The notes beneath the pieces are model-generated. The model did not search any database. It was not told the origin of the DNA and was given only the letters and a program-made list of their open reading frames with translations. Positions 510-7,814 of a DNA stretch of 64,000 bases are shown piece after piece. The number at the start of each line of letters is the position of its first letter. The first letter of the stretch is position 1. The DNA comes from an uncultured Gammaproteobacteria bacterium (GTDB lineage: Bacteria > Pseudomonadota > Gammaproteobacteria > JACCXJ01), in contig CAVXTM010000001.1 in assembly GCA_963764725.1 (NCBI GenBank), positions 192,001 through 256,000 of the forward strand, read 5' to 3'. The translations under genes were made by a program, and so were the position numbers.

Positions 510-786
510 CGAAATCTCCGACAGTCCCGGATGAGAGAAATTGCAGCGCCGCAGCCGCGACTTAAGTGGAACACACCACGGCGCTCAAGAAACCCCAGTA
601 CCGGTGGCGGAAACAACGCAGCTAATAAGACAACACCGAAAACGCCCCGCACCGTCACCGCTGGCCATCATTGTTGCGAAACGATTTCGCAGTGCCGTGT
701 TCCTGACCCAAGGATCGCGGCATTCGCCGGACTGGTACGACGGCGATTGCTGGGATCCCGGCAAGCTCGACAAGTTCTCCTCCTCC

Positions 787-2474
787 CTAACCCGGCATAG
801 CCGGAACCAAGGTGTTGAATGTACTATTCTGGCGGATGGGCAATAAGAACTGAGATGGGTCGTCGCCATGAACTCCTTTGTTGAACGCCATCAAGCGAAG
901 ATCGCCGCGGTGCTTTGTTGCTTTGACCGCATCGTGATCACTGGCACGCTTCCGGAGATCGCCCATGCCGAGGCTATGGCCCGGTATTTGGGTGTCCGGG
1001 GTATGCGTCTGTTTGACTACCCCCGCTGGGCAGAACCGCTGCGCGAGGCGCTTCGGACCCATGCCGAGCGGCTGGCCGCTGAGGCTTCGTTGGAAATTGA
1101 ATTCATCCGTCATTACAAGGCGTTTCGTAAAGAAGAACGGATCAAAGCGATTTTGGCTTTGCGCGGTGAGCACCCGGGGCTGGTGCATATCTTCTCGGCG
1201 ATGGAGGCCTGTCCTTCGTATCGCCCCTGGCATGACAAGCTTCAGCATACGACCCGTTTGAAGTCTACCCCGGGCAAGTGTTTGCATTATTACTTCTATT
1301 TCATCGATGAGATCTTCGGGCTCTGTTATGTCCGAGTACCCACCTGGGCACCGTTTCGCCTGCAGGTCTATTTGAACGGCCATCACTGGTTAGCCCAACG
1401 ACTGACCAAGACAGGGATCGCCTTTGAGCGCGCCGATAATGCCTTCTTGTCCATCGGCGATCCCCAACAGGCTCAGGCGCTTGCCGATAGCCTCGATCCC
1501 AAAGGCTTGCATCGGCGTTTGGACCGATGGGCGAAAAGCTTCTGTCCTATCTTGGGTCAGTTTCGCGCTGGTTATCACTGGAGCTTCATGCAGGTGGAGT
1601 TGCATCCTCGGCGCGCCAAGCAGGGCCACTCCCTGGCCCTGGCTTTCTCGACCGATGTCATCTTCCACCGCCAAGCCGATTTCCAACCCCTCTATCAAGC
1701 CATCGTGCGTACCGCCGTGCATGCCCTCAAGGCAGAACACGTCGCCACCTTCTTGGGACGCAAACTCACCTCGGCCTTCAGCGGGGAGGCCGGTAACGAT
1801 TTTCACACCCGCATTCAGGGTACACGCATCCGCCATCATATGGGACCAGCAAGCCTCAAGCTCTACGATAAATTCAGTCTCATGGCTCGGGTGGAATGCA
1901 CCGCCAACGATGTCTCCTTCTTCAAACACCACCGTTGGGTGGAACAACGCAATGGGCGCAAGCAATTCAAACTCGCACCCCTGCGAAAAAACATCTATAG
2001 CCTCCCCGATCTGCGAGAGCTGATGCATGCTGCCAATGAACGCTATCTCAGCTTCATGGCCAGCATCGATAACCCCAATGCAGCTCTGCACGCCATCGAC
2101 AAAATGGCCAAACCTGTACGAGAGAAAGACCGCTCCTATCGGGGCTTCAATCTCTTCCTCGGTGAAGATCATAGCCTTTTTATTACCCTCGCCCGCGGGG
2201 AGTGGAACATCAGCGGCTTTCGCGCCTCCGATCTCCGAGCCCATCTCCGGGATCTCTCCACCGGCCGTGCCTCCTACTGGTTGAAACGCTTGCGCACCCA
2301 TGGCCTCATCAAAAAGATTGGACATCGCTACAAGTACTACCTCACGACATTCGGTCGTCGTGTGCTCAGCAGCGCACTCGCTATCCGAGAGTATGTAGTC
2401 ATGCCTGCTCTCAATACCGCTCATGCATGACACTCTTTGCTTTTTTGCACAAGATTTCATGGATAAGGGACTAA
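787..2474 (+). mobile_element. Insertion sequence without terminal inverted repeats, flanked by CTAA
   Basis: CTAA at 787-790 and 2471-2474; empty site restores the interrupted ORF; hairpin CCGGC-ATA-GCCGG just inside the left end; single 520-aa ORF. Confidence 0.8.
868..2430 (+). CDS. Putative transposase of an unclassified IS family (often labelled MarR family because of its C-terminal wHTH)
   Basis: N-terminal CFDRIVITGTLP, GKCLHYYFYF, SLKLYDK...RVECTAND, C-terminal winged helix (GFRASDLR...LKRLRTHGLIKK...YYLT); sole ORF of a delimited insertion. Confidence 0.7.
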   Translation: MNSFVERHQAKIAAVLCCFDRIVITGTLPEIAHAEAMARYLGVRGMRLFDYPRWAEPLREALRTHAERLAAEASLEIEFIRHYKAFRKEERIKAILALRGEHPGLVHIFSAMEACPSYRPWHDKLQHTTRLKSTPGKCLHYYFYFIDEIFGLCYVRVPTWAPFRLQVYLNGHHWLAQRLTKTGIAFERADNAFLSIGDPQQAQALADSLDPKGLHRRLDRWAKSFCPILGQFRAGYHWSFMQVELHPRRAKQGHSLALAFSTDVIFHRQADFQPLYQAIVRTAVHALKAEHVATFLGRKLTSAFSGEAGNDFHTRIQGTRIRHHMGPASLKLYDKFSLMARVECTANDVSFFKHHRWVEQRNGRKQFKLAPLRKNIYSLPDLRELMHAANERYLSFMASIDNPNAALHAIDKMAKPVREKDRSYRGFNLFLGEDHSLFITLARGEWNISGFRASDLRAHLRDLSTGRASYWLKRLRTHGLIKKIGHRYKYYLTTFGRRVLSSALAIREYVVMPALNTAHA

Positions 2475-2699
2475 GCAGCTCGTTCGATTCCGCCATCACC
2501 TCCGCGGCGAGCCCATCCGGTTCCTCCTCGGGAAGCGGCGGTGGGGGTTCCTCACGGGGAGGCGGGGGGCGGAGGCGGGTGGTAGACAAGTTACAGGGCT
2601 CAAGTCTCCTACCTTGCATAACGTGAAATAGGGGAGACGTGATTCCGTATTTGCGTACAACCTTATTCCTACCGTTCCAGCCCGTGTTCGCGTCCACCA

Positions 2700-2846
2700 G
2701 GTCGATCTTTCCGTGAGTCAACGCCGTATCCGCATGCACGCTGGCCTCCAAGCGATGTGAAACGGAGCTTCAGTCTTGAAGTGCCGAAGTTCGTTCTGTA
2801 GCGCTTTCAGGTGTTCGAGAATCAAGTTTACAACGTTGTCGGTCAT
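2700..2846 (-). pseudogene. Degraded small coiled-coil hypothetical protein
   Basis: MTDNVVNLILEHLKALQNELRHFKTE after a purine-rich RBS-like stretch, then frame breaks. Confidence 0.35.
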
Positions 2847-3147
2847 ATCGGCTCTCTCGTAGGAGCGTCGTTGTAGCGTGCAGAGAGAGTGTACCATGAC
2901 CTGATAACTCAAACCGGGGGGAAACGCACGTCGTCGCGGATTATCGTGGTCCCTTGGTCGTGTAAGGGGGGTTGGTTACGGGTTCCGCCTTCGCGGGTTG
3001 TGCGTTCCTCCAGGTGAACGCGCGGGCGGCGGGCTATGTGGCCCCAATCCGTCACAACAAACCGATCCTGAACATCCCTCCTTTAGTCCTTCCTCTAATC
3101 CTTTAATCGCCGGTGAAAGGCTAGGCTGACACCACTTCGAGAAATAG

Positions 3148-3224
3148 GTCGGGTAGACCTGGGTAGTCGCCCACCCAGGTCCCCCTCAGATCCGGACATG
3201 CGCGACTAACGCATCCGGCTCCTC
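3148..3224 (-). ncRNA. Group II intron ribozyme domains V and VI
   Basis: Minus strand GAGCCGGATGCGTTAGTCGCGCATGTCCGGATC (domain V with AGC triad), then GAGGGGG-ACCTGGGTGGGCGACTACCCAGGT-CTACCCGAC (domain VI with bulged A). Confidence 0.88.
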
Positions 3225-4164
3225 AGACAATGGTTTCGCTGCGCGCTTCAGATATGAATGAACGATGCGGGCAGGTGGCAAAGGATGACGAGCCAGAAGA
3301 CGACTCGCATGATCCCAATTGAAACGCCCTCGCTGAGAGCGGCGCCGTAGCCATTTAAGCCACAGTCGTTCCACATGGTAGCAGAGGCGTTGCAGCAACC
3401 GGATATTGCCGGTGATGCCGTAGTAGGCGTAATGACCGCGTAGCTTCCGCTCCAGGTGGGCGCGCTGCTCGCACACCGGCAGGTGGCGGAACCGGCGACA
3501 CCAGAGCTTGATTCGGAGCAGGGCTCGACGGAGACGGTCCTTGGCCGTCTTCTGCTGAATGACCCAGTAGCCCCGGCGTGAGCGACCCCAATAATGGGTA
3601 AAGCCCAAGAAAGTGAACGTTCCCAGCACCGAAACGGTCCCTCTGCGATGCGCTGGCGCGAAATGCACCAGCCGAGTCTTTGTGGGATGCAGCGTCAACC
3701 CATATTTGGCAAACCGCTTGGGTAAGACAGCCAGCACCCGTCGCGCATCGGCCTCCTCGGCAAAGCACAAGAGCGCATCGTCAGCGAATCTGACAGTGAA
3801 CGCACGGCCTCGCAGCCGCGGCCTCACCTCTGCCGCAAACCAACGGTCCAGTACCTCGTGGAGGTAGATGTTCGCCAAAATCGGTGAAACCACAGCCTGC
3901 CTCCGGAAACGTCACCTTCTCTCGCTCCATAACACCGGCGTTAAGCCACTTGTCAATCAAACGACACAGCACACCATCACGCACCCGTTGCTTGATGAAC
4001 GCACGAAGCTGCGAATGATCGAGCGTATCGAAAAATGACCAATCATCCAGCCACCTCCCATCGCCATCGTCGACTGCCACAAGACATCGAGCGCTTGATG
4101 TGCCGAACGGCGGGGCCGAAACCAAAGGAGCAGTCCAAAAAGTCCTGCTCGAAAAGGGGTTCTA
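3186..4164 (-). pseudogene. ltrA: Group II intron reverse transcriptase/maturase pseudogene
   Basis: Fragments in three frames: [61 protein letters not shown]; the GTPQG motif is missing. Confidence 0.85.
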
Positions 4165-5223
4165 GTGACCTGTAACAGGCACTTTAGTAGTGATGCGGCG
4201 TGAGGGATCAAAGTATTTCCACTTCACGGTTTTAGGTTTCTTGTTGTAGTGACGGATATAGCGCATGAGTTTTCTTTTAAGATCATTGACCGAAGTGAAG
4301 ATGCCGCGGGCGATGACATCGCGCTCGATCTTGGCGAACCACAGCTCCACTTGGTTTAGCCAAGAGGAGTAAGTGGGGATGAAATGAAGACGCACGTTCG
4401 GATGCTGGTCAAGGAACTCTTCTACCCGCTTGGTCTTGTGAGCCGAGAGGTTATCCGCGATGACATGGATCTCCTTGTTCTTGGGTTGGCTCGCCACGAT
4501 GTCGGTCAAAAACGCGACAAACTCCGCGGAGGTATGGCGATCGGCGGTCTTACCCAGAATCCCTCCGGTTTTGGTGTTGAAGGCGGCGTACAGACTCAAG
4601 GTGCCGTGCCGGTAATACTCAAAGCCGTGCCGCTCGGCGCGTCCCGGGGAGAGCGGCAGCAGCGGGTCTTTACGGTCCAAGGCTTGGATGGCGGTCTTCT
4701 CGTCCACGCAGAAGACCGCGGCGTGTTGCGGGGGGTTCAGATACAACCCAATGATGTCAGCCGCCTTAGCCTCGAAGTCCGGGTCGTTGGAAGCCATATA
4801 GCGCTCCACCCGATGGGGTTTCAACCCATGCTTAGCCCATACCCGCGCTACCATCATATGAGAAAGCCCAAGCTCGCGCGCAAGCTTGCGGGTGCTCCAA
4901 TGCGTGGAGCCATCGGGCGGTTTCTTCTTGGTGGTCCAGGCCAAGATCTTCGCTTCGCCTCGCACATCGAGTTTGTTCGCCGGCTGTCCCCTGTGCCGAC
5001 TGTACAAACCGGCAAGCCGCTCGTCACTAAAACGTTTGCTCCAGCTATTGATAAACCCATCATTGCATGCGAGCTTGCTTCGAATCTCAGCCCATGTGTG
5101 GCCTTGCTCAAGCAACAAAATCAACCGTGCGCGGCGCGCATCCTCCGCACGGCCCGTCCGACTTATGGCTCGCTTGGTCAATTCCACACGTTCGGTTTCC
5201 ATCAATTTTATCGCGGTTTTCAT
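4162..5223 (-). CDS. IS630 family transposase
   Basis: HWSTRKLA HTH; DDE motifs CVDEK, IADNL, SWLNQVE. Confidence 0.95.
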   Translation of the reverse strand: MKTAIKLMETERVELTKRAISRTGRAEDARRARLILLLEQGHTWAEIRSKLACNDGFINSWSKRFSDERLAGLYSRHRGQPANKLDVRGEAKILAWTTKKKPPDGSTHWSTRKLARELGLSHMMVARVWAKHGLKPHRVERYMASNDPDFEAKAADIIGLYLNPPQHAAVFCVDEKTAIQALDRKDPLLPLSPGRAERHGFEYYRHGTLSLYAAFNTKTGGILGKTADRHTSAEFVAFLTDIVASQPKNKEIHVIADNLSAHKTKRVEEFLDQHPNVRLHFIPTYSSWLNQVELWFAKIERDVIARGIFTSVNDLKRKLMRYIRHYNKKPKTVKWKYFDPSRRITTKVPVTGH

Positions 5224-5265
5224 GACCGCGATTATACTGCTAACTTATATGTTACAGGCCACTAG
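4162..5265 (-). mobile_element. IS630 family insertion sequence
   Basis: Inverted ends CTAGTGACCTGTAACA (4162-4177) and TGTTACAGGCCACTAG (5250-5265) with TA/CTAG target. Confidence 0.92.
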
Positions 5266-5294
5266 TATATGGTTACTGTAATATATTTACACAT

Positions 5295-6008
5295 ATGCCT
5301 GCTGGTGTCATGATGTCCGCCCGAGTCCTCTCGGGAGTCGAGGCCGTGGTGCGCCGCATACCCGGGTTCTGCGCCGACATGGAGATCCTGTTCATCGAGG
5401 GCCACAGCAAGGACGGCACGTTGGACGAGATCCGGCGCGTGATCGCGGCTTATCCGCAATTCGACATCAAGGTGCTAATGCAGGACGGCAAGGGGAAGGG
5501 CGATGCGGTGCGCAAGGGCTTTGCCAATGCGAGAGGCGATGTGCTGATGATCCTCGACGCCGACCAGACGATGCCACCCGAGGCGTTGCCGCGTTTCTAC
5601 GAGGCGCTGGTAAGCGGCAAGGGCGAGTTCGTGAACGGCACCCGGCTGGTCTACCCGATGGAAAAGCAGGCGATGCGCTTCCTTAACCATTTCGCCAACC
5701 AAGTGTTTTCGTGGCTGTTCAGTTGGCTGCTGAACCAGCGTTTCACCGATACCCTCTGCGGCACCAAGGTGCTTTCGAAGCGCCACTACGAGCAGCTCGC
5801 CGCCAGTCGGAGCTATTTCGGCGACTTCGATCCCTTCGGTGATTTCGATCTCATTTTCGGCGCGGCCAAGCTCAACCTCAAAATCATCGAGATCCCGATC
5901 CGCTATGCCAGCCGCACCTACGGTGAGACACAGATCTCGCGCTTCCGCCATGGCTGGCTTCTGCTGCGCATGGTAGTTTTTGCGTTCCGCAAGCTAAAGG
6001 CATTCTGA
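5295..6008 (+). CDS. GT2 (DPM1-like) glycosyltransferase, probably 5'-truncated
   Basis: EGHSKDGT, GKGDAVRKG, ILDADQT, FTDTLCGTK, DPFGDFDL; lacks the first strand and PxxNE motif. Confidence 0.8.
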   Translation: MPAGVMMSARVLSGVEAVVRRIPGFCADMEILFIEGHSKDGTLDEIRRVIAAYPQFDIKVLMQDGKGKGDAVRKGFANARGDVLMILDADQTMPPEALPRFYEALVSGKGEFVNGTRLVYPMEKQAMRFLNHFANQVFSWLFSWLLNQRFTDTLCGTKVLSKRHYEQLAASRSYFGDFDPFGDFDLIFGAAKLNLKIIEIPIRYASRTYGETQISRFRHGWLLLRMVVFAFRKLKAF

Positions 6009-6759
6009 TGAGCGAAGAAATCCTGCGGAACCATCGCGAGTTGTGGCGGCAGAAACCAGTCCTTCGTGCCATTTATTCCGACTTCTACGAGAGAATTACG
6101 GCTGCCTGTCGTCCCGGCCTTTCCTTGGAAATCGGCGGTGGATCAGGCAACCTAAAAGACTTCGCGAGGGAGGTTGTATCCACCGATATCGTCCAGGTGC
6201 CATGGCTGGATGCGGCGGCGGATGCTCAAGCGCTTCCGTTCGCCGCGGGAAGTTTCGCAAACGTGGTCTCCGTTGAACGTGCTGCACCACATCGAACGGC
6301 CGCGGCGATTCCTTGCAGAGGCCGAGCGGGTGCCAACCTGGTGGCCGTGTCATCTTGCTTGAACCCGCGATCACTCCCATTAGCTGGGCGTTCTATCGCT
6401 TTTTCCATCCCGAGCCGGTTGTTTTGAGTGCCGATCCTTTGGCGGACGGGCCGCTCGATTCGAACCGGGAGCCTTTCGATGCTAATCAAGCGATTCCTAC
6501 GCTGCTGTTCGAACGCTATCGGCAGCGTATGATTCAGGCCTTCCCTGGCTTAAAGATCGTCCAACTAAAACGGCTCAGTTTGTTCGCGTATCCTCTATCC
6601 GGCGGGTTTCGTTCCTGGTCCTTAATCTCAGCCGCCGTCGTCGGTCCAATGCTAAGCCTAGAGCGGAGGCTTTCTCCTCTAATCGGCCGCTTGGCAGCCT
6701 TCCGGCTTTTCGTTGTCATCGAGAAGCAGGACGCATACGCTAATTCGCGACATTTGTAG
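6008..6759 (+). pseudogene. Class I SAM methyltransferase with two frameshifts
   Basis: LEIGGGSG, then VLHHIERPRRFLAEAERV, then PGGRVILLEP in three different frames (shifts near 6275 and 6333). Confidence 0.8.
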
Positions 6760-6764
6760 CCGTA

Positions 6765-7814
6765 ATGACCGCAGTCCGTCAATCTGGTCGGAGCGAGTCT
6801 TCGCTGAAGCGTGGGGGCTTCGTTCGAGTCGCGGTTACCGTTCTGATCCTTGCCTATCTTGGTTTCAAGGTGCATTGGGCTGAATTGGGGAAACAATTTC
6901 TCAGGAGTGATCCACTTTGGTTACTGCTCGCCTGTTTCATTTTTGGCGCAGCGTTTCTACTTGGGAGCCTCCGTTGGTGGCTCCTTCTAAAGGTGCAAGA
7001 GATCTATTTACCCTTTCGAGTCGTTACGGCACTCACGTTTGTTGGGCAGTTCTTCAACTCCTTTCTGCTTGGGGCAACCGGTGGCGATGTCGTGAGGACT
7101 TTCTATACGTTGAAGTACAACCCTCAGCAAAAGACTCACGCTACACTCTCAGTCATTGTTGATCGGGTTATGGGCGTGGTGACGTTACTCTTTTGTGCTC
7201 TTATCGGATTAGCCTGGCAGCTTGGCCGCGTGATGCAGCGTGATGACATCCGTGTAATCGGCCTCGCGCTGTTAGTCGTTTTCGGAGTAATCGTAGCAGG
7301 CATGACGAGCCTCGCCCTTATACCCTTCAGGCGATTGCCAGCCGTATTTCACCGATTCTGGAATACAATTCCCAGGCGTCACAATCTTGAATTGCTTATC
7401 GGTGGGCTGCGCCAACACGGCAAGTCAGTGCACCTTACGATTTATGCCCTGCTCTGTAGCTTTGCCATTCACGTTCTCGTTTTCACGGCGGCTTTTTGTA
7501 TTGGCCAAGCTATTCATCTCGATGCGACGTATGGGGAGATTATCGTCGTACTCGCGGTCGTAATCTGTGTTGTCAGCTTGCCAATTAGCATAGGTGGTCA
7601 TGGCGTCCGTGAAGGAGCGTTCGTCCTAATGTTTGCTGCGTTCGGTATCATTTCTATCGATCGATACACGGGTATGGGTCAAGAGCCCGCAATCTTGTTT
7701 TCCCTCTTATTTTTTGCCCTGCTCTCGGTATGGAGCTTTATAGGCGGATTGATCTACCTCACCTTCGACCATGCCTACCACAATGCCGGGTCGTCGGCCC
7801 CGCGATACCCATAA
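6765..7814 (+). CDS. Lysylphosphatidylglycerol synthase TM-region / flippase-like protein (UPF0104)
   Basis: RWWLLL, GQFFNSFLLGATGGDVVR, DRVMG, LPISIGGHGVREG; many TM segments. Confidence 0.85.
   Translation: MTAVRQSGRSESSLKRGGFVRVAVTVLILAYLGFKVHWAELGKQFLRSDPLWLLLACFIFGAAFLLGSLRWWLLLKVQEIYLPFRVVTALTFVGQFFNSFLLGATGGDVVRTFYTLKYNPQQKTHATLSVIVDRVMGVVTLLFCALIGLAWQLGRVMQRDDIRVIGLALLVVFGVIVAGMTSLALIPFRRLPAVFHRFWNTIPRRHNLELLIGGLRQHGKSVHLTIYALLCSFAIHVLVFTAAFCIGQAIHLDATYGEIIVVLAVVICVVSLPISIGGHGVREGAFVLMFAAFGIISIDRYTGMGQEPAILFSLLFFALLSVWSFIGGLIYLTFDHAYHNAGSSAPRYP

Follow-up and report, generated by a model that had tools for sequence, protein, structure and literature searches.

Described transposases belong to the DDE, DEDD, HUH, serine recombinase, tyrosine recombinase, Cas1 and reverse transcriptase classes. 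Rep_trans enzymes are the counterparts of HUH enzymes in the replication of plasmids and phages and in conjugation; in the part of PMC5714925 available to us, transposition is listed for HUH enzymes only and not for Rep_trans. The DNA analysed here (the window) is a stretch of 64,000 nucleotides from an uncultured gammaproteobacterium (contig CAVXTM010000001.1, positions 192,001 to 256,000), and all positions below without a contig name refer to it. Positions 791-2474 of the window are a real, mobile, multi-copy element. It is probably an autonomous copy of an undescribed and widespread insertion sequence (IS) family, whose transposase would join a Rep_trans-like tyrosine nuclease-transesterase of the TATA-binding protein (TBP) fold to a winged helix, with a mechanism that we infer. 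The element could well be the founding example of a further transposase class, characterized by a TBP-fold, Rep_trans-like tyrosine nuclease, a 13-nt DNA mini-hairpin and the 5-nt target CCTAA, which would have spread to thousands of bacterial lineages of many phyla under the label of a transcription factor. Full-text searches, which did not extend to ISfinder or to supplements, turned up no paper in which an IS is said to have a transposase of the Rep_trans kind or of the TBP fold.

Rep_trans (PF02486) serves as the comparison set and includes RepC/RepD of pT181, RepSTK1 (4CIJ), RepDE (4CWC), RstA of CTXphi and the MOBT relaxases NicK of ICEBs1 and Orf20 of Tn916. The catalytic domain is built on a TBP-like sheet with the catalytic residue Y191 on a strand; R189 and K193 are essential, and the metal ligands D46, D142 and E214 each lie on a separate strand (Carr et al., PMC4797284, as far as the available part describes them). 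The conserved motifs are N' (D), I (RxD), II (T/SxY/ExG), III (YxKxxE) and IV (W/LxRxE) (PMC5714925, available part). Cleavage leaves the enzyme attached to the 5' end, with a free 3'-OH upstream (PMC4797284, PMC5714925, available parts). The archaeal Rep-Arvir/DUF7845 initiators, such as RepSNJ2, have a catalytic domain of the TBP fold and, after it, a MarR-like winged helix; their link to Rep_trans is visible only by structure, and a conserved DNA hairpin acts as cis element (PMC13107129, available part). Among transposable elements, the HUH Y2 type (IS91) is characterized by the lack of inverted and direct repeats (PMC5714925, available part).

The element of the window and its immediate surroundings comprise the following features.
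791-2474, plus strand: insertion sequence of 1684 bp, including the right-hand CTAA at 2471-2474; bounds taken from 8 full copies with unrelated flanks.
787-790, plus strand: left-flank CTAA, preceded by C786 to give the target pentamer CCTAA; read as target DNA, outside the element.
868-2430, plus strand: ORF of the proposed transposase (P0001), 520 aa, with its stop codon at 2428-2430.

The CTAA tetramers at 787-790 and 2471-2474 are 1680 bp apart, and 868-2430 is the sole long sense open reading frame (ORF) between them. A first reading of the window from its letters and ORF list (the sequence-only reading) had described a 1.68-kb segment between two CTAA, with a left-end hairpin, one 520-aa ORF and no terminal inverted repeats (TIRs), and coordinates, ORF list, folding of single-stranded DNA (ssDNA) and inverted-repeat search all agree with it. 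The last yielded 20 inverted pairs in 760-2500, none of which joins both termini; the one that comes nearest (I8) begins 75 nt in from the left end. Other copies of the ends, which that reading had proposed to look for, were found when the host's own 4.2-Mb assembly was searched with 787-2474. There are 8 full-length copies (5 at 99-100% identity, 3 at 92-94%), besides further copies that are truncated or broken by other insertions. The flanks of the copies are unrelated and the recovered ends all adjoin CTAA with two exceptions, one diverged copy (contig C10) with TGAA at its left and another copy whose right end differs. Of the 11 left ends recovered, 10 have C before the tetramer, the TGAA copy being the exception. 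Among the near-identical copies the ORF is intact in four (520 aa, the window's included) and frameshifted in one; among the three diverged copies it is intact in one (505 aa, contig C10) and broken in two. An Rfam scan of 600-2700 gave no match, and no partner of the bridge-RNA or omega-RNA type was found; a sigma-70 promoter scan found no site within the element. A junction of right end, CTAA and left end was sought in the own genome and gave only mismatched chance matches. GC skew, compared there with copy orientation, is weak and of mixed sign, and hence uninformative. Sequencing runs were compared as assembled contigs only. In one of them (X2, a metagenome) a contig ending at window position 786 joins the IS left end, after C-CTAA, to a flank absent from the tabulated left flanks of the own genome; the population may be polymorphic for an insertion here.

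The site of insertion can be reconstructed from the gene that the element interrupts.
664-786, plus strand: left part of an interrupted C-terminal remnant of a DUF2207 gene (…FLTQGSRHSPDWYDGDCWDPGKLDKFSSS), whose Leu codon runs on into the CTA of 787-789.
2475-2585, plus strand: right part of the DUF2207 remnant (SSSFDSAITSAASPSGSSSGSGGGG…), from comparison with the orthologue by eye.

A genome of the same genus (G003) encodes an intact orthologue, a 570-aa DUF2207 protein (PF09972, 7e-32; PF20990, 5e-31) that reads ...KLDQLSSSLGSSFDAAIS... across the site and ends ...FLTQGSRHSPDWYDGDRWDPGKLDQLSSSLGSSFDAAISSAATPPGSSSGSGGGGSSGGGGGGGGGGGW. The window reads ...FLTQGSRHSPDWYDGDCWDPGKLDKFSSSL-IS-SSSFDSAITSAASPSGSSSGSGGGG...; its left part is 83% identical to the orthologue over matched residues 7-42 of the 42-residue query, and its right part has, by eye, a Gly-rich tail that falls short of the orthologue's and does not share the frame of the final GGW-stop. 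The orthologue DNA TCCTCCCTAGGCAGCTCG, with a single CTAG, corresponds to TCCTCC-CTAA-IS-CTAA-GCAGCTCG in the window; we take CTAG against CTAA in another species to be ordinary divergence. Because removal of 1684 bp rejoins the DUF2207 gene without a gap, the exactly reconstructable CTAA target of the sequence-only reading was correct. Its DUF2207 label holds by way of the Pfam domains of the orthologue and is not obtainable from the window alone, where Pfam gave no relevant match for any of the 3 fragments. A second, paralogous empty site was recovered by rebuilding the flanks of each own copy and searching the genome with them: contig C18 reads ...GGTTGCCACAACGGTTATC-CTAA-TCGGATTGCC... (GGTTATC-CTAA-TCGGATT), in which the left and right flanks of the C9 copy meet exactly at a single CTAA. 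CTAA-bounded copies are thus accompanied by two empty sites, each with one tetramer. A contig of a sediment metagenome joins 788 to 2475, a weak indication since its shorter side is only 28 nt, and the own genome contains no DUF2207 paralogue spanning the site. The gene hit by the IS is itself a C-terminal remnant (window 541-700 and 2560-2585), in which similarity to the orthologue begins near ...AVFLTQGS.

Both ends of the element carry short conserved boxes.
791-813, plus strand: left-end box CCCGGCATAGCCGGAACCAAGG, which holds the hairpin; a regular expression found the box in 68 of 80 related loci.
792-804, plus strand: left hairpin CCGGC-ATA-GCCGG (stems 792-796 and 800-804, loop ATA), folding as ssDNA with 5 bp and a 3-nt loop.
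2461-2474, plus strand: right-end box GGATAAGGGA-CTAA, family consensus GTAAGGnA-CTAA.
2423-2464, plus strand: imperfect subterminal right hairpin (dG -6.0 kcal/mol; z -1.45, weak), whose sequence is not conserved between lineages.

The left hairpin starts one base inside the left junction, and the box around it is proposed to be a recognition element beside the nick site. With colons marking the junctions, the ends across phyla follow the consensus CCTAA:sCCGGC-NNA-GCCGGAACCAAA … GTAAGGnA-CTAA:, the left one with the alternatives (C)CTAA:[C/G]CCGGC-NNA-GCCGG-AACCAAA(C)AGG. The same ends occur in elements whose proteins are only ~48-70% identical to that of the window. Many of the loci that the left-box expression did not match (12 of 80) are cut by contig ends, and the right ends of other lineages show, by eye, different small palindromes. 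In 51 distinct left ends, 97.3% of the hairpin cells pair and the third loop base is always A. One pair changes from C-G to T-A on both sides in 4 of the 51 sequences, from 4 lineages, and never on one side alone. The regular expression had fixed 3 of the 5 hairpin pairs (the innermost was unspecified) and limited the covarying pair to C/T opposite A/G, so that only the covarying one is informative.

The target can be followed at scale in the alphaproteobacterial assembly G034 (the genome of locus L101), where a profile search gave 46 matches, 36 full-length copies were fetched and 35 were parsed. The left tetramer is CTAA in 35 of 35 and the preceding base is C in 34 of 35, all insertions lying 3' of CTAA; the right tetramer is CTAA in 34 of 35 and CTAT in one, and no position 3' of the element is conserved. 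Recognition is asymmetric, with C-CTAA at the left and A-CTAA at the right. Where boundaries were verified by comparison of copies, deviation affects the right tetramer in 6 cases (CTAG in L034; CTAT in L036, L102, L106 and L132; CTTA in L094) and the left one in a single case, the own C10 copy. At 53 loci both ends were located by motif only, so that the boundaries of single copies are motif-based; 37 of these have equal tetramers and 16 unequal ones. Three right-tetramer variants sit in copies otherwise 99.9-100% identical to their sisters, which suggests that the last base of the right tetramer may be set during transposition or come from the target, and not from later mutation. For L102 and L106, which share CTAT in different flanks, inheritance is suggested instead. 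The CTAR core proposed in the sequence-only reading is too loose, in that the target is C-CTAA and the right tetramer is CTAA, varying now and then and then mostly in its last base.

G034 has undergone a burst of ~40 near-identical copies, 22 full ones lying within 0.8 Mb of one 1.56-Mb contig (C1), in whose first 0.58 Mb no copy was seen. The full copies of C1 are interleaved in both orientations (12 plus, 10 minus) between 0.58 and 1.39 Mb. At C1:1229364-1233518 (L135, L150) a 235-bp derivative without ORF retains the left hairpin box (loop variant GCCGGCAAGGCCGG) and the right box, and forms a head-to-tail array of the order mini-CTAA-full-CTAA-mini-CTAA-full in which a single CTAA is shared per joint. 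Insertion beside an existing right end would give such an array, as would rolling-circle concatenation. The derivative delimits the cis-acting ends to ~25 nt at the left and ~12 nt at the right. An apparent internal TGA in all G034 copies proved to be the normal stop codon.

These counts also bear on a different and rather unlikely course, in which the same element and enzyme would act through staggered cleavage of a double-stranded target and produce a genuine duplication of 3-4 bp (CTA/CTAA) like those of classical IS elements, with no single-stranded intermediate. Such a duplication would account for the identical tetramers in 34 of 35 G034 copies, 37 of the 53 motif-defined loci and 6 of the 8 own full copies and for the lack of orientation bias, and duplication of CTA by an element starting at A explains variation that affects only the right fourth base. 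It accords less well with the fully asymmetric ends, with L102 and L106, both of which have CTAA at the left and CTAT at the right in different flanks, or with L070/L071, whose left flanks differ and whose right CTAA is the same. Moreover, nicking of one strand is what tyrosine nucleases of this fold are known to do (PMC4797284, PMC5714925, available parts).

The tyrosine-nuclease reading rests on the protein, in which two parts can be distinguished.
868-2076, plus strand: putative catalytic domain, residues 1-403, a TBP-like pseudo-twofold saddle in the AlphaFold2 model.
2077-2427, plus strand: linker helices and C-terminal winged helix-turn-helix (wHTH), residues 404-520, from structural matches.

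Searches of Pfam, NCBIfam and PDB, by phmmer and with a profile of 62 sequences, returned only weak wHTH matches at residues 460-508; in Pfam these were HVO_A0261_N in 29 of 62 members and MarR in 3 of 62 (best E 0.032). The catalytic part has no sequence match in Pfam, NCBIfam or PDB (none in Pfam at E ≤ 1), consistent with the earlier statement that no DDE, HUH, Ser- or Tyr-recombinase motif is visible, and NCBIfam has no model for the 520-aa protein. An alignment of 62 homologues, 28-94% identical, leaves D20, R21, G104, E113, Y142, Y144, G151, P162, N170, L175, N191, E244, K331, Y333, R341 and E343 invariant (62/62); 61 of 62 retain D263, and the same number K335. AlphaFold2 models the whole protein with pLDDT 92 and pTM 0.83, and residues 1-403 alone with pLDDT 93.8 and pTM 0.90.

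Residues 404-520 resemble the winged helices of HxlR, MarR, PadR and Sso10a proteins with structural Z of 8-9.6, and the C-terminal wHTH of the sequence-only reading is thereby borne out (Z about 9 to HxlR/MarR/PadR proteins). The ORF might accordingly be taken for a DNA-binding regulator or accessory protein of the MarR/ArsR kind, with the element being moved by an enzyme encoded elsewhere: the wHTH is real, public annotation uses these names, and the ORF-less derivative is evidently carried in trans. This is very improbable, as the wHTH (residues ~404-520) makes up only ~115 of 505 residues, whereas the remaining 400 aa form a conserved enzyme-like N-terminal domain with 16 invariant residues down to 28% identity; furthermore, the ORF is accompanied by both ends from phylum to phylum and no other ORF is conserved. 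Regulators of the MarR/ArsR type are small dimeric proteins of about 100-150 aa made up of the wHTH.

When the catalytic domain was compared with 48,161 chains, the best structural matches were TBPs (1mp9_B, Z 8.6, 180/189 residues; 7o4i_O, 8.4; 5fur_A, 8.1), the matches of Z 8.1-8.6 spanning 173-180 aa, followed by 6e24_A (Z 7.4) and 6cnb_R (Z 6.8). The Rep_trans structures RepDE (4cwc_A; Z 7.0, rmsd 4.9, 178 aa) and RepSTK1 (4cij_A; Z 6.7, rmsd 4.6, 194 aa) rank among them. TBPs and RepDE/RepSTK1 are the full-domain matches and occupy 7 of the top 8 rows, with half-domain matches below them. A Foldseek search of the BFVD viral models gave giant-virus TBPs and Inoviridae proteins, including A0A345MNV4 and A0A2N9QVX7; A0A345MNV4 is a PF02486 Rep, and the same match pattern is given for the archaeal Rep-Arvir initiators (PMC13107129, available part). 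HUH proteins did not rise above noise (TraI relaxase rows had probabilities of 0.35-0.41), and no profile or fold match to HUH Y2 proteins (IS91/ISCR) is among those listed.

IS5, a DDE element, has the target YTAR and duplicates 4 bp. The CTAA-type flanking tetramers are common to IS5 and the present element, and an IS5-like element with a hidden DDE/RNase H-like transposase, target CTAR and a 4-bp duplication could also claim a Foldseek match to Tn5 transposase, though a very weak one (probability 0.08). Such an origin is hardly credible. Neither the TIRs nor the DDE transposase of IS5 were found in the element, the TBP-like saddle is predicted with confidence, no RNase H fold is among the listed structural matches, and no transposase family was matched in Pfam or NCBIfam.

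The TBP-like fold permits a comparison with RepC motif by motif, in which RepC numbering was fixed by reading pT181 RepC and aligning 11 close homologues.
Motif N': RepC S-F-D46-A-M-T-I-V-G; IS family C-F-D20-R-I-V-I-T-G.
Motif I: RepC R-L-D142-L-A-F; IS family Y-A-T-D263-V-I-F.
Motif III: RepC R189-I-Y191-N-K193; IS family K331-L-Y333-D-K335.
Motif IV: RepC W-R212-V-E214; IS family A-R341-V-E343.

All four IS motifs fall on predicted strands and follow one another as in RepC: D20 on 12-27, D263 on 258-266, K331-Y333-K335 on 328-335 and R341/E343 on 339-346. The aligned ranges are model 13-403 with RepDE 39-239 and model 12-402 with RepSTK1 1-250, which by arithmetic places D20 opposite D46/D9. 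If the strand order of TBP is S2-S3-S4-S5-S1 / S1'-S5'-S4'-S3'-S2', as we take it to be, D20, D263, E343 and Y333 would come to lie on four adjacent central strands of the saddle. A putative active site is therefore proposed from the model, with D20, D263 and E343 binding metal, Y333 as nucleophile, and K331, K335 and R341. The family shares with Rep_trans a curved TBP-like β-sheet as catalytic domain (in the IS a predicted one), an N-terminal F-D strand, a second Asp opening the second repeat, [RK]-x-Y-x-K on one strand and R-x-E on the next, a separate DNA-binding module of helix-turn-helix type and a hairpin that is beside the nick site, in the IS a putative one, or contains it. In contrast to Rep_trans, there is no detectable sequence homology, the domain has ~400 aa instead of ~200-250 aa owing to large helical insertions, motif II and parts of I and III are missing, and the spacing from Tyr to RxE is 10 residues and not 23. 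The gene, moreover, belongs to a 1.7-kb multi-copy chromosomal IS and not to a plasmid, phage or integrative and conjugative element (ICE), and nicking would take place outside the hairpin and not within the loop.

This layout also helps to assess whether the element could be excised as a double-stranded circle and inserted by conservative, integrase-like recombination at a CTAA core. A single CTAA at the empty sites and at each junction, head-to-tail arrays sharing single CTAAs and the lack of orientation bias would all follow from it. It is unlikely nonetheless: Tyr or Ser recombinases resemble the protein in neither sequence nor fold, the target measures no more than 5 nt, and a conserved acidic triad with a Tyr on a β-sheet is the layout of the metal-dependent Rep_trans nuclease (PMC4797284, available part).

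A tyrosine-nuclease mechanism is favoured because it matches the polarity of Rep_trans, the asymmetric ends, the hairpin, the one-sided target and the head-to-tail arrays. The protein would recognize the left-end hairpin box and nick one strand at (C)CTAA^ beside the hairpin. Y333 would become joined to the 5' phosphate, assisted by metal on D20/D263/E343, and a second cut would be made at the right end, behind the terminal CTAA that belongs to the element. The strand might leave as a circle closed at one CTAA, in the manner of IS608, or be displaced by rolling-circle replication from the 3'-OH of the left flank, in the manner of IS91, and would then be joined 3' of CCTAA in a target that may be single- or double-stranded. 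Cleavage could occur at CTA^A or at CTAA^. Because the second cut would follow the terminal CTAA, the right-hand CTAA, or at least its CTA, would be carried by the element and mimic a 4-bp duplication. Catalysis by Y333, the strand polarity, the single-stranded intermediate and the alternative of copy-out or cut-out are what we infer in this scheme.

Several observations weigh against a Rep_trans-like nuclease acting in this way. The structural Z values of 6.7-8.6 are middling by the tool's own scale, and Foldseek against PDB gave no match at E ≤ 0.001 for either the whole or the domain model. The equivalence of Y333 with Y191, and the other equivalences, follow from motif order, strand assignment and range arithmetic and not from superposition. 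Motif II (T/SxY/ExG) is absent, strand 318-325 reading G-x-R-I-K/R-H, as are the R of motif I (RxD) and the E of motif III (+5 from Tyr). The invariant residues E113, Y142, Y144, N170, N191 and E244 are unexplained and could form the real active site or a second one. PF02486 does not match P0001 at E ≤ 1 and found none of the at least 8 copies in the own genome (0 matches), while the B. subtilis control was detected. Comparison of the family by hhalign with a narrow RepC alignment (11 sequences, 79-93% identical) gave a probability of 0.08, and no Rep family is among the 25 listed of 48 Pfam families matched by the 62 members. With regard to the mechanism, the lack of orientation bias on contig C1 speaks against obligatory targeting of lagging-strand ssDNA, and the sequence alone is compatible with a true 3- or 4-bp duplication. 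The window copy's own activity is doubtful as well, since a 15-aa insert, described below, lies between E244 and D263.

The Rep_trans resemblance seen in the sequence-only reading is consequently upheld for the TBP-like fold and for KxYxK/RxE, conserved in 61-62 of 62 homologues, and not for sequence profile, PF02486 match or motif II. The model supports a protein that is Rep_trans-like in fold and in the layout of its putative active site. It is not called a PF02486 member, because motif II and other elements are unmatched, the profile-profile comparison is negative and PF02486 is blind to the gene.

A parallel in domain order is Rep-Arvir, where a TBP-fold catalytic domain likewise precedes a MarR-like winged helix, the link to Rep_trans appears only by structure and a DNA hairpin is the conserved cis element (PMC13107129, available part). 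Unlike Rep-Arvir, the IS is bacterial and transposable, not a virus or plasmid replicon, and the context of the Tyr is KxYDK and not KHYYM. PF25227 (DUF7845) does not match P0001 and is not among the 25 listed of the 48 families for the 62 members. At the pT181 origin (L118 4355-4382) the RepC hairpin reads AACCGGCTA-CTCTAA-TAGCCGGTT and has the stem core CCGGC/GCCGG (IR-II), as in the left hairpin of the IS; its CT-AA step presumably lies at the nick site. The shared stem may be a coincidence.

In IS91, the target tetranucleotide at one end equals the last bases of the other end. The present family likewise repeats the tetranucleotide beside one end as the terminal tetranucleotide of the far end, and shares with IS91/ISCR and Helitrons (HUH Y2) the lack of TIRs, head-to-tail arrays, non-autonomous derivatives and a tyrosine nuclease, here a predicted one, of kinship with the initiators of rolling-circle replication. 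It differs in having a TBP-like fold that is not homologous to HUH/RRM and in the lack of a helicase or second ORF. In contrast to IS91/ISCR, no clear read-through transduction was found, L040/L041 being the sole candidate. These two IS copies with a CTAG right end (OZ241870.1 214820-231312) are part of a larger repeat or duplication, at least 3.1 kb long, which runs from 36 bp upstream of the left end to at least 1.4 kb past the right end. Read-through past the CTAG right end was rejected here, given that the shared region also begins 36 bp upstream of the left end.

With the HUH Y1 elements IS200/IS605 (IS608, ISDra2) the family has in common its small size, asymmetric hairpin-bearing ends, insertion just 3' of a fixed 4-5-nt sequence, a right end that closes with what would be its own cleavage tetranucleotide and the lack of a proven duplication. 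Enzyme fold and size differ from those of IS200/IS605 and only the left hairpin is conserved; no TnpB was found, nor any omega RNA (Rfam, 0 matches). Unlike IS608 and ISDra2, there is no strand or orientation bias, as judged from the interleaved 12 plus and 10 minus copies of G034 C1, for which the direction of replication was not determined.

The window copy differs from most of its relatives by an insertion within the ORF.
1600-1644, plus strand: in-frame insertion LHPRRAKQGHSLALA, residues 245-259, a dispersed palindromic repeat resembling repetitive extragenic palindromes (REP).

The 45-bp insert follows directly after the invariant E244, ends four residues before D263 and is modelled as a low-confidence loop (243-254). 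It is present in the window copy and its four near-identical sisters and absent in the 3 diverged own copies, and 60 of 61 homologues are gapped there. Contigs skipping exactly 1600-1644 occur in one metagenome and in one metatranscriptome (RNA-library) run. Copies with the insert may depend on the sole intact insert-free copy (C10), acting in trans. The insert is a copy of the palindromic repeat ...GCCAAGCAGGGCCAnTCCCTGGCCCTGGCTT..., which short-query BLAST located at 14 or more other places in the own genome. The repeat, of ~45-50 bp (TTGCATCCTCGGCGCGCCAAGCAGGGCCAnTCCCTGGCCCTGGCTTTC, stem 12-13 bp), looks like a REP or a miniature inverted-repeat transposable element (MITE). In the own genome (G000) it lies at C18:697079, C18:457921, C9:7520, C5:63779, C15:171948, C15:352896, C2:116295, C1:466644, C1:2703, C10:131161, C10:125810, C10:137218, C10:721 and C8:7508. 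It occurs in sister genera as well, at 94-100% identity, and in one sediment metagenome its bin is more than 10 times deeper than the neighbouring ones (78,051 vs ~2,000-7,300). At G000 C11:177653-180497 (L012/L013) an IS copy is split within the 45-bp repeat, between ...TTGCATCCT and CTCGGCGCG..., by an insertion of ~1.15 kb, which suggests another element targeting this repeat.

Relatives of the protein are numerous. More than 7800 were found among 90%-identity clusters, nearly all of ~505 aa and none with a Pfam domain, and an exhaustive HMMER scan gave 7444 clusters at 50% identity (E ≤ 0.001). An ESM Atlas search returned only unnamed clusters of the same family. Many relatives come from contigs 1.6-2 kb long, and those of IS length have no other gene. 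At NCBI a few relatives bear the name "MarR family", and "ArsR family transcriptional regulator" occurs too, so that the suspicion of a widespread class hidden under a MarR label was well founded. A scan of one genome per species, with a profile of 11 closer sequences, gave 567 confirmed loci. The 80 loci kept come from Gamma-, Alpha-, Beta- and Deltaproteobacteria, Acidobacteriota, Armatimonadota, Planctomycetota, Chloroflexota, Actinomycetes and others. In 10 other multi-copy genomes from several phyla, pairwise BLAST placed the bounds of the shared region at the same end motifs in 9, while in the tenth (L040/L041) it extends beyond either end. A cultured, non-pathogenic host is also known: plasmid pOLGA1 of Paraburkholderia phytofirmans OLGA172 has one copy, with the ends CCTAA:GCCGGACGAGCCGGAACCAAACAGG ... 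TTAGCGA-CTAA: and a gene annotated as "ArsR family transcriptional regulator".

If the proposed reading is true, a Rep_trans-like IS family would add a transposase class and fill a transposition niche known only for HUH enzymes. It would also correct thousands of annotations as "MarR/ArsR regulator" or "hypothetical" and account for many repeat-collapsed metagenome contigs of 1.6-1.8 kb. A single protein with a left end of ~25 nt and a right end of ~12 nt would further offer a compact, tractable system for studying how the TBP fold evolved into a nuclease.

Downstream of the element in the window, two minus-strand features were noted by eye.
3186-3893, minus strand: a 235-aa fragment resembling a group II intron reverse transcriptase/maturase.
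4162-5223, minus strand: a 353-aa ORF resembling an IS630-type transposase.

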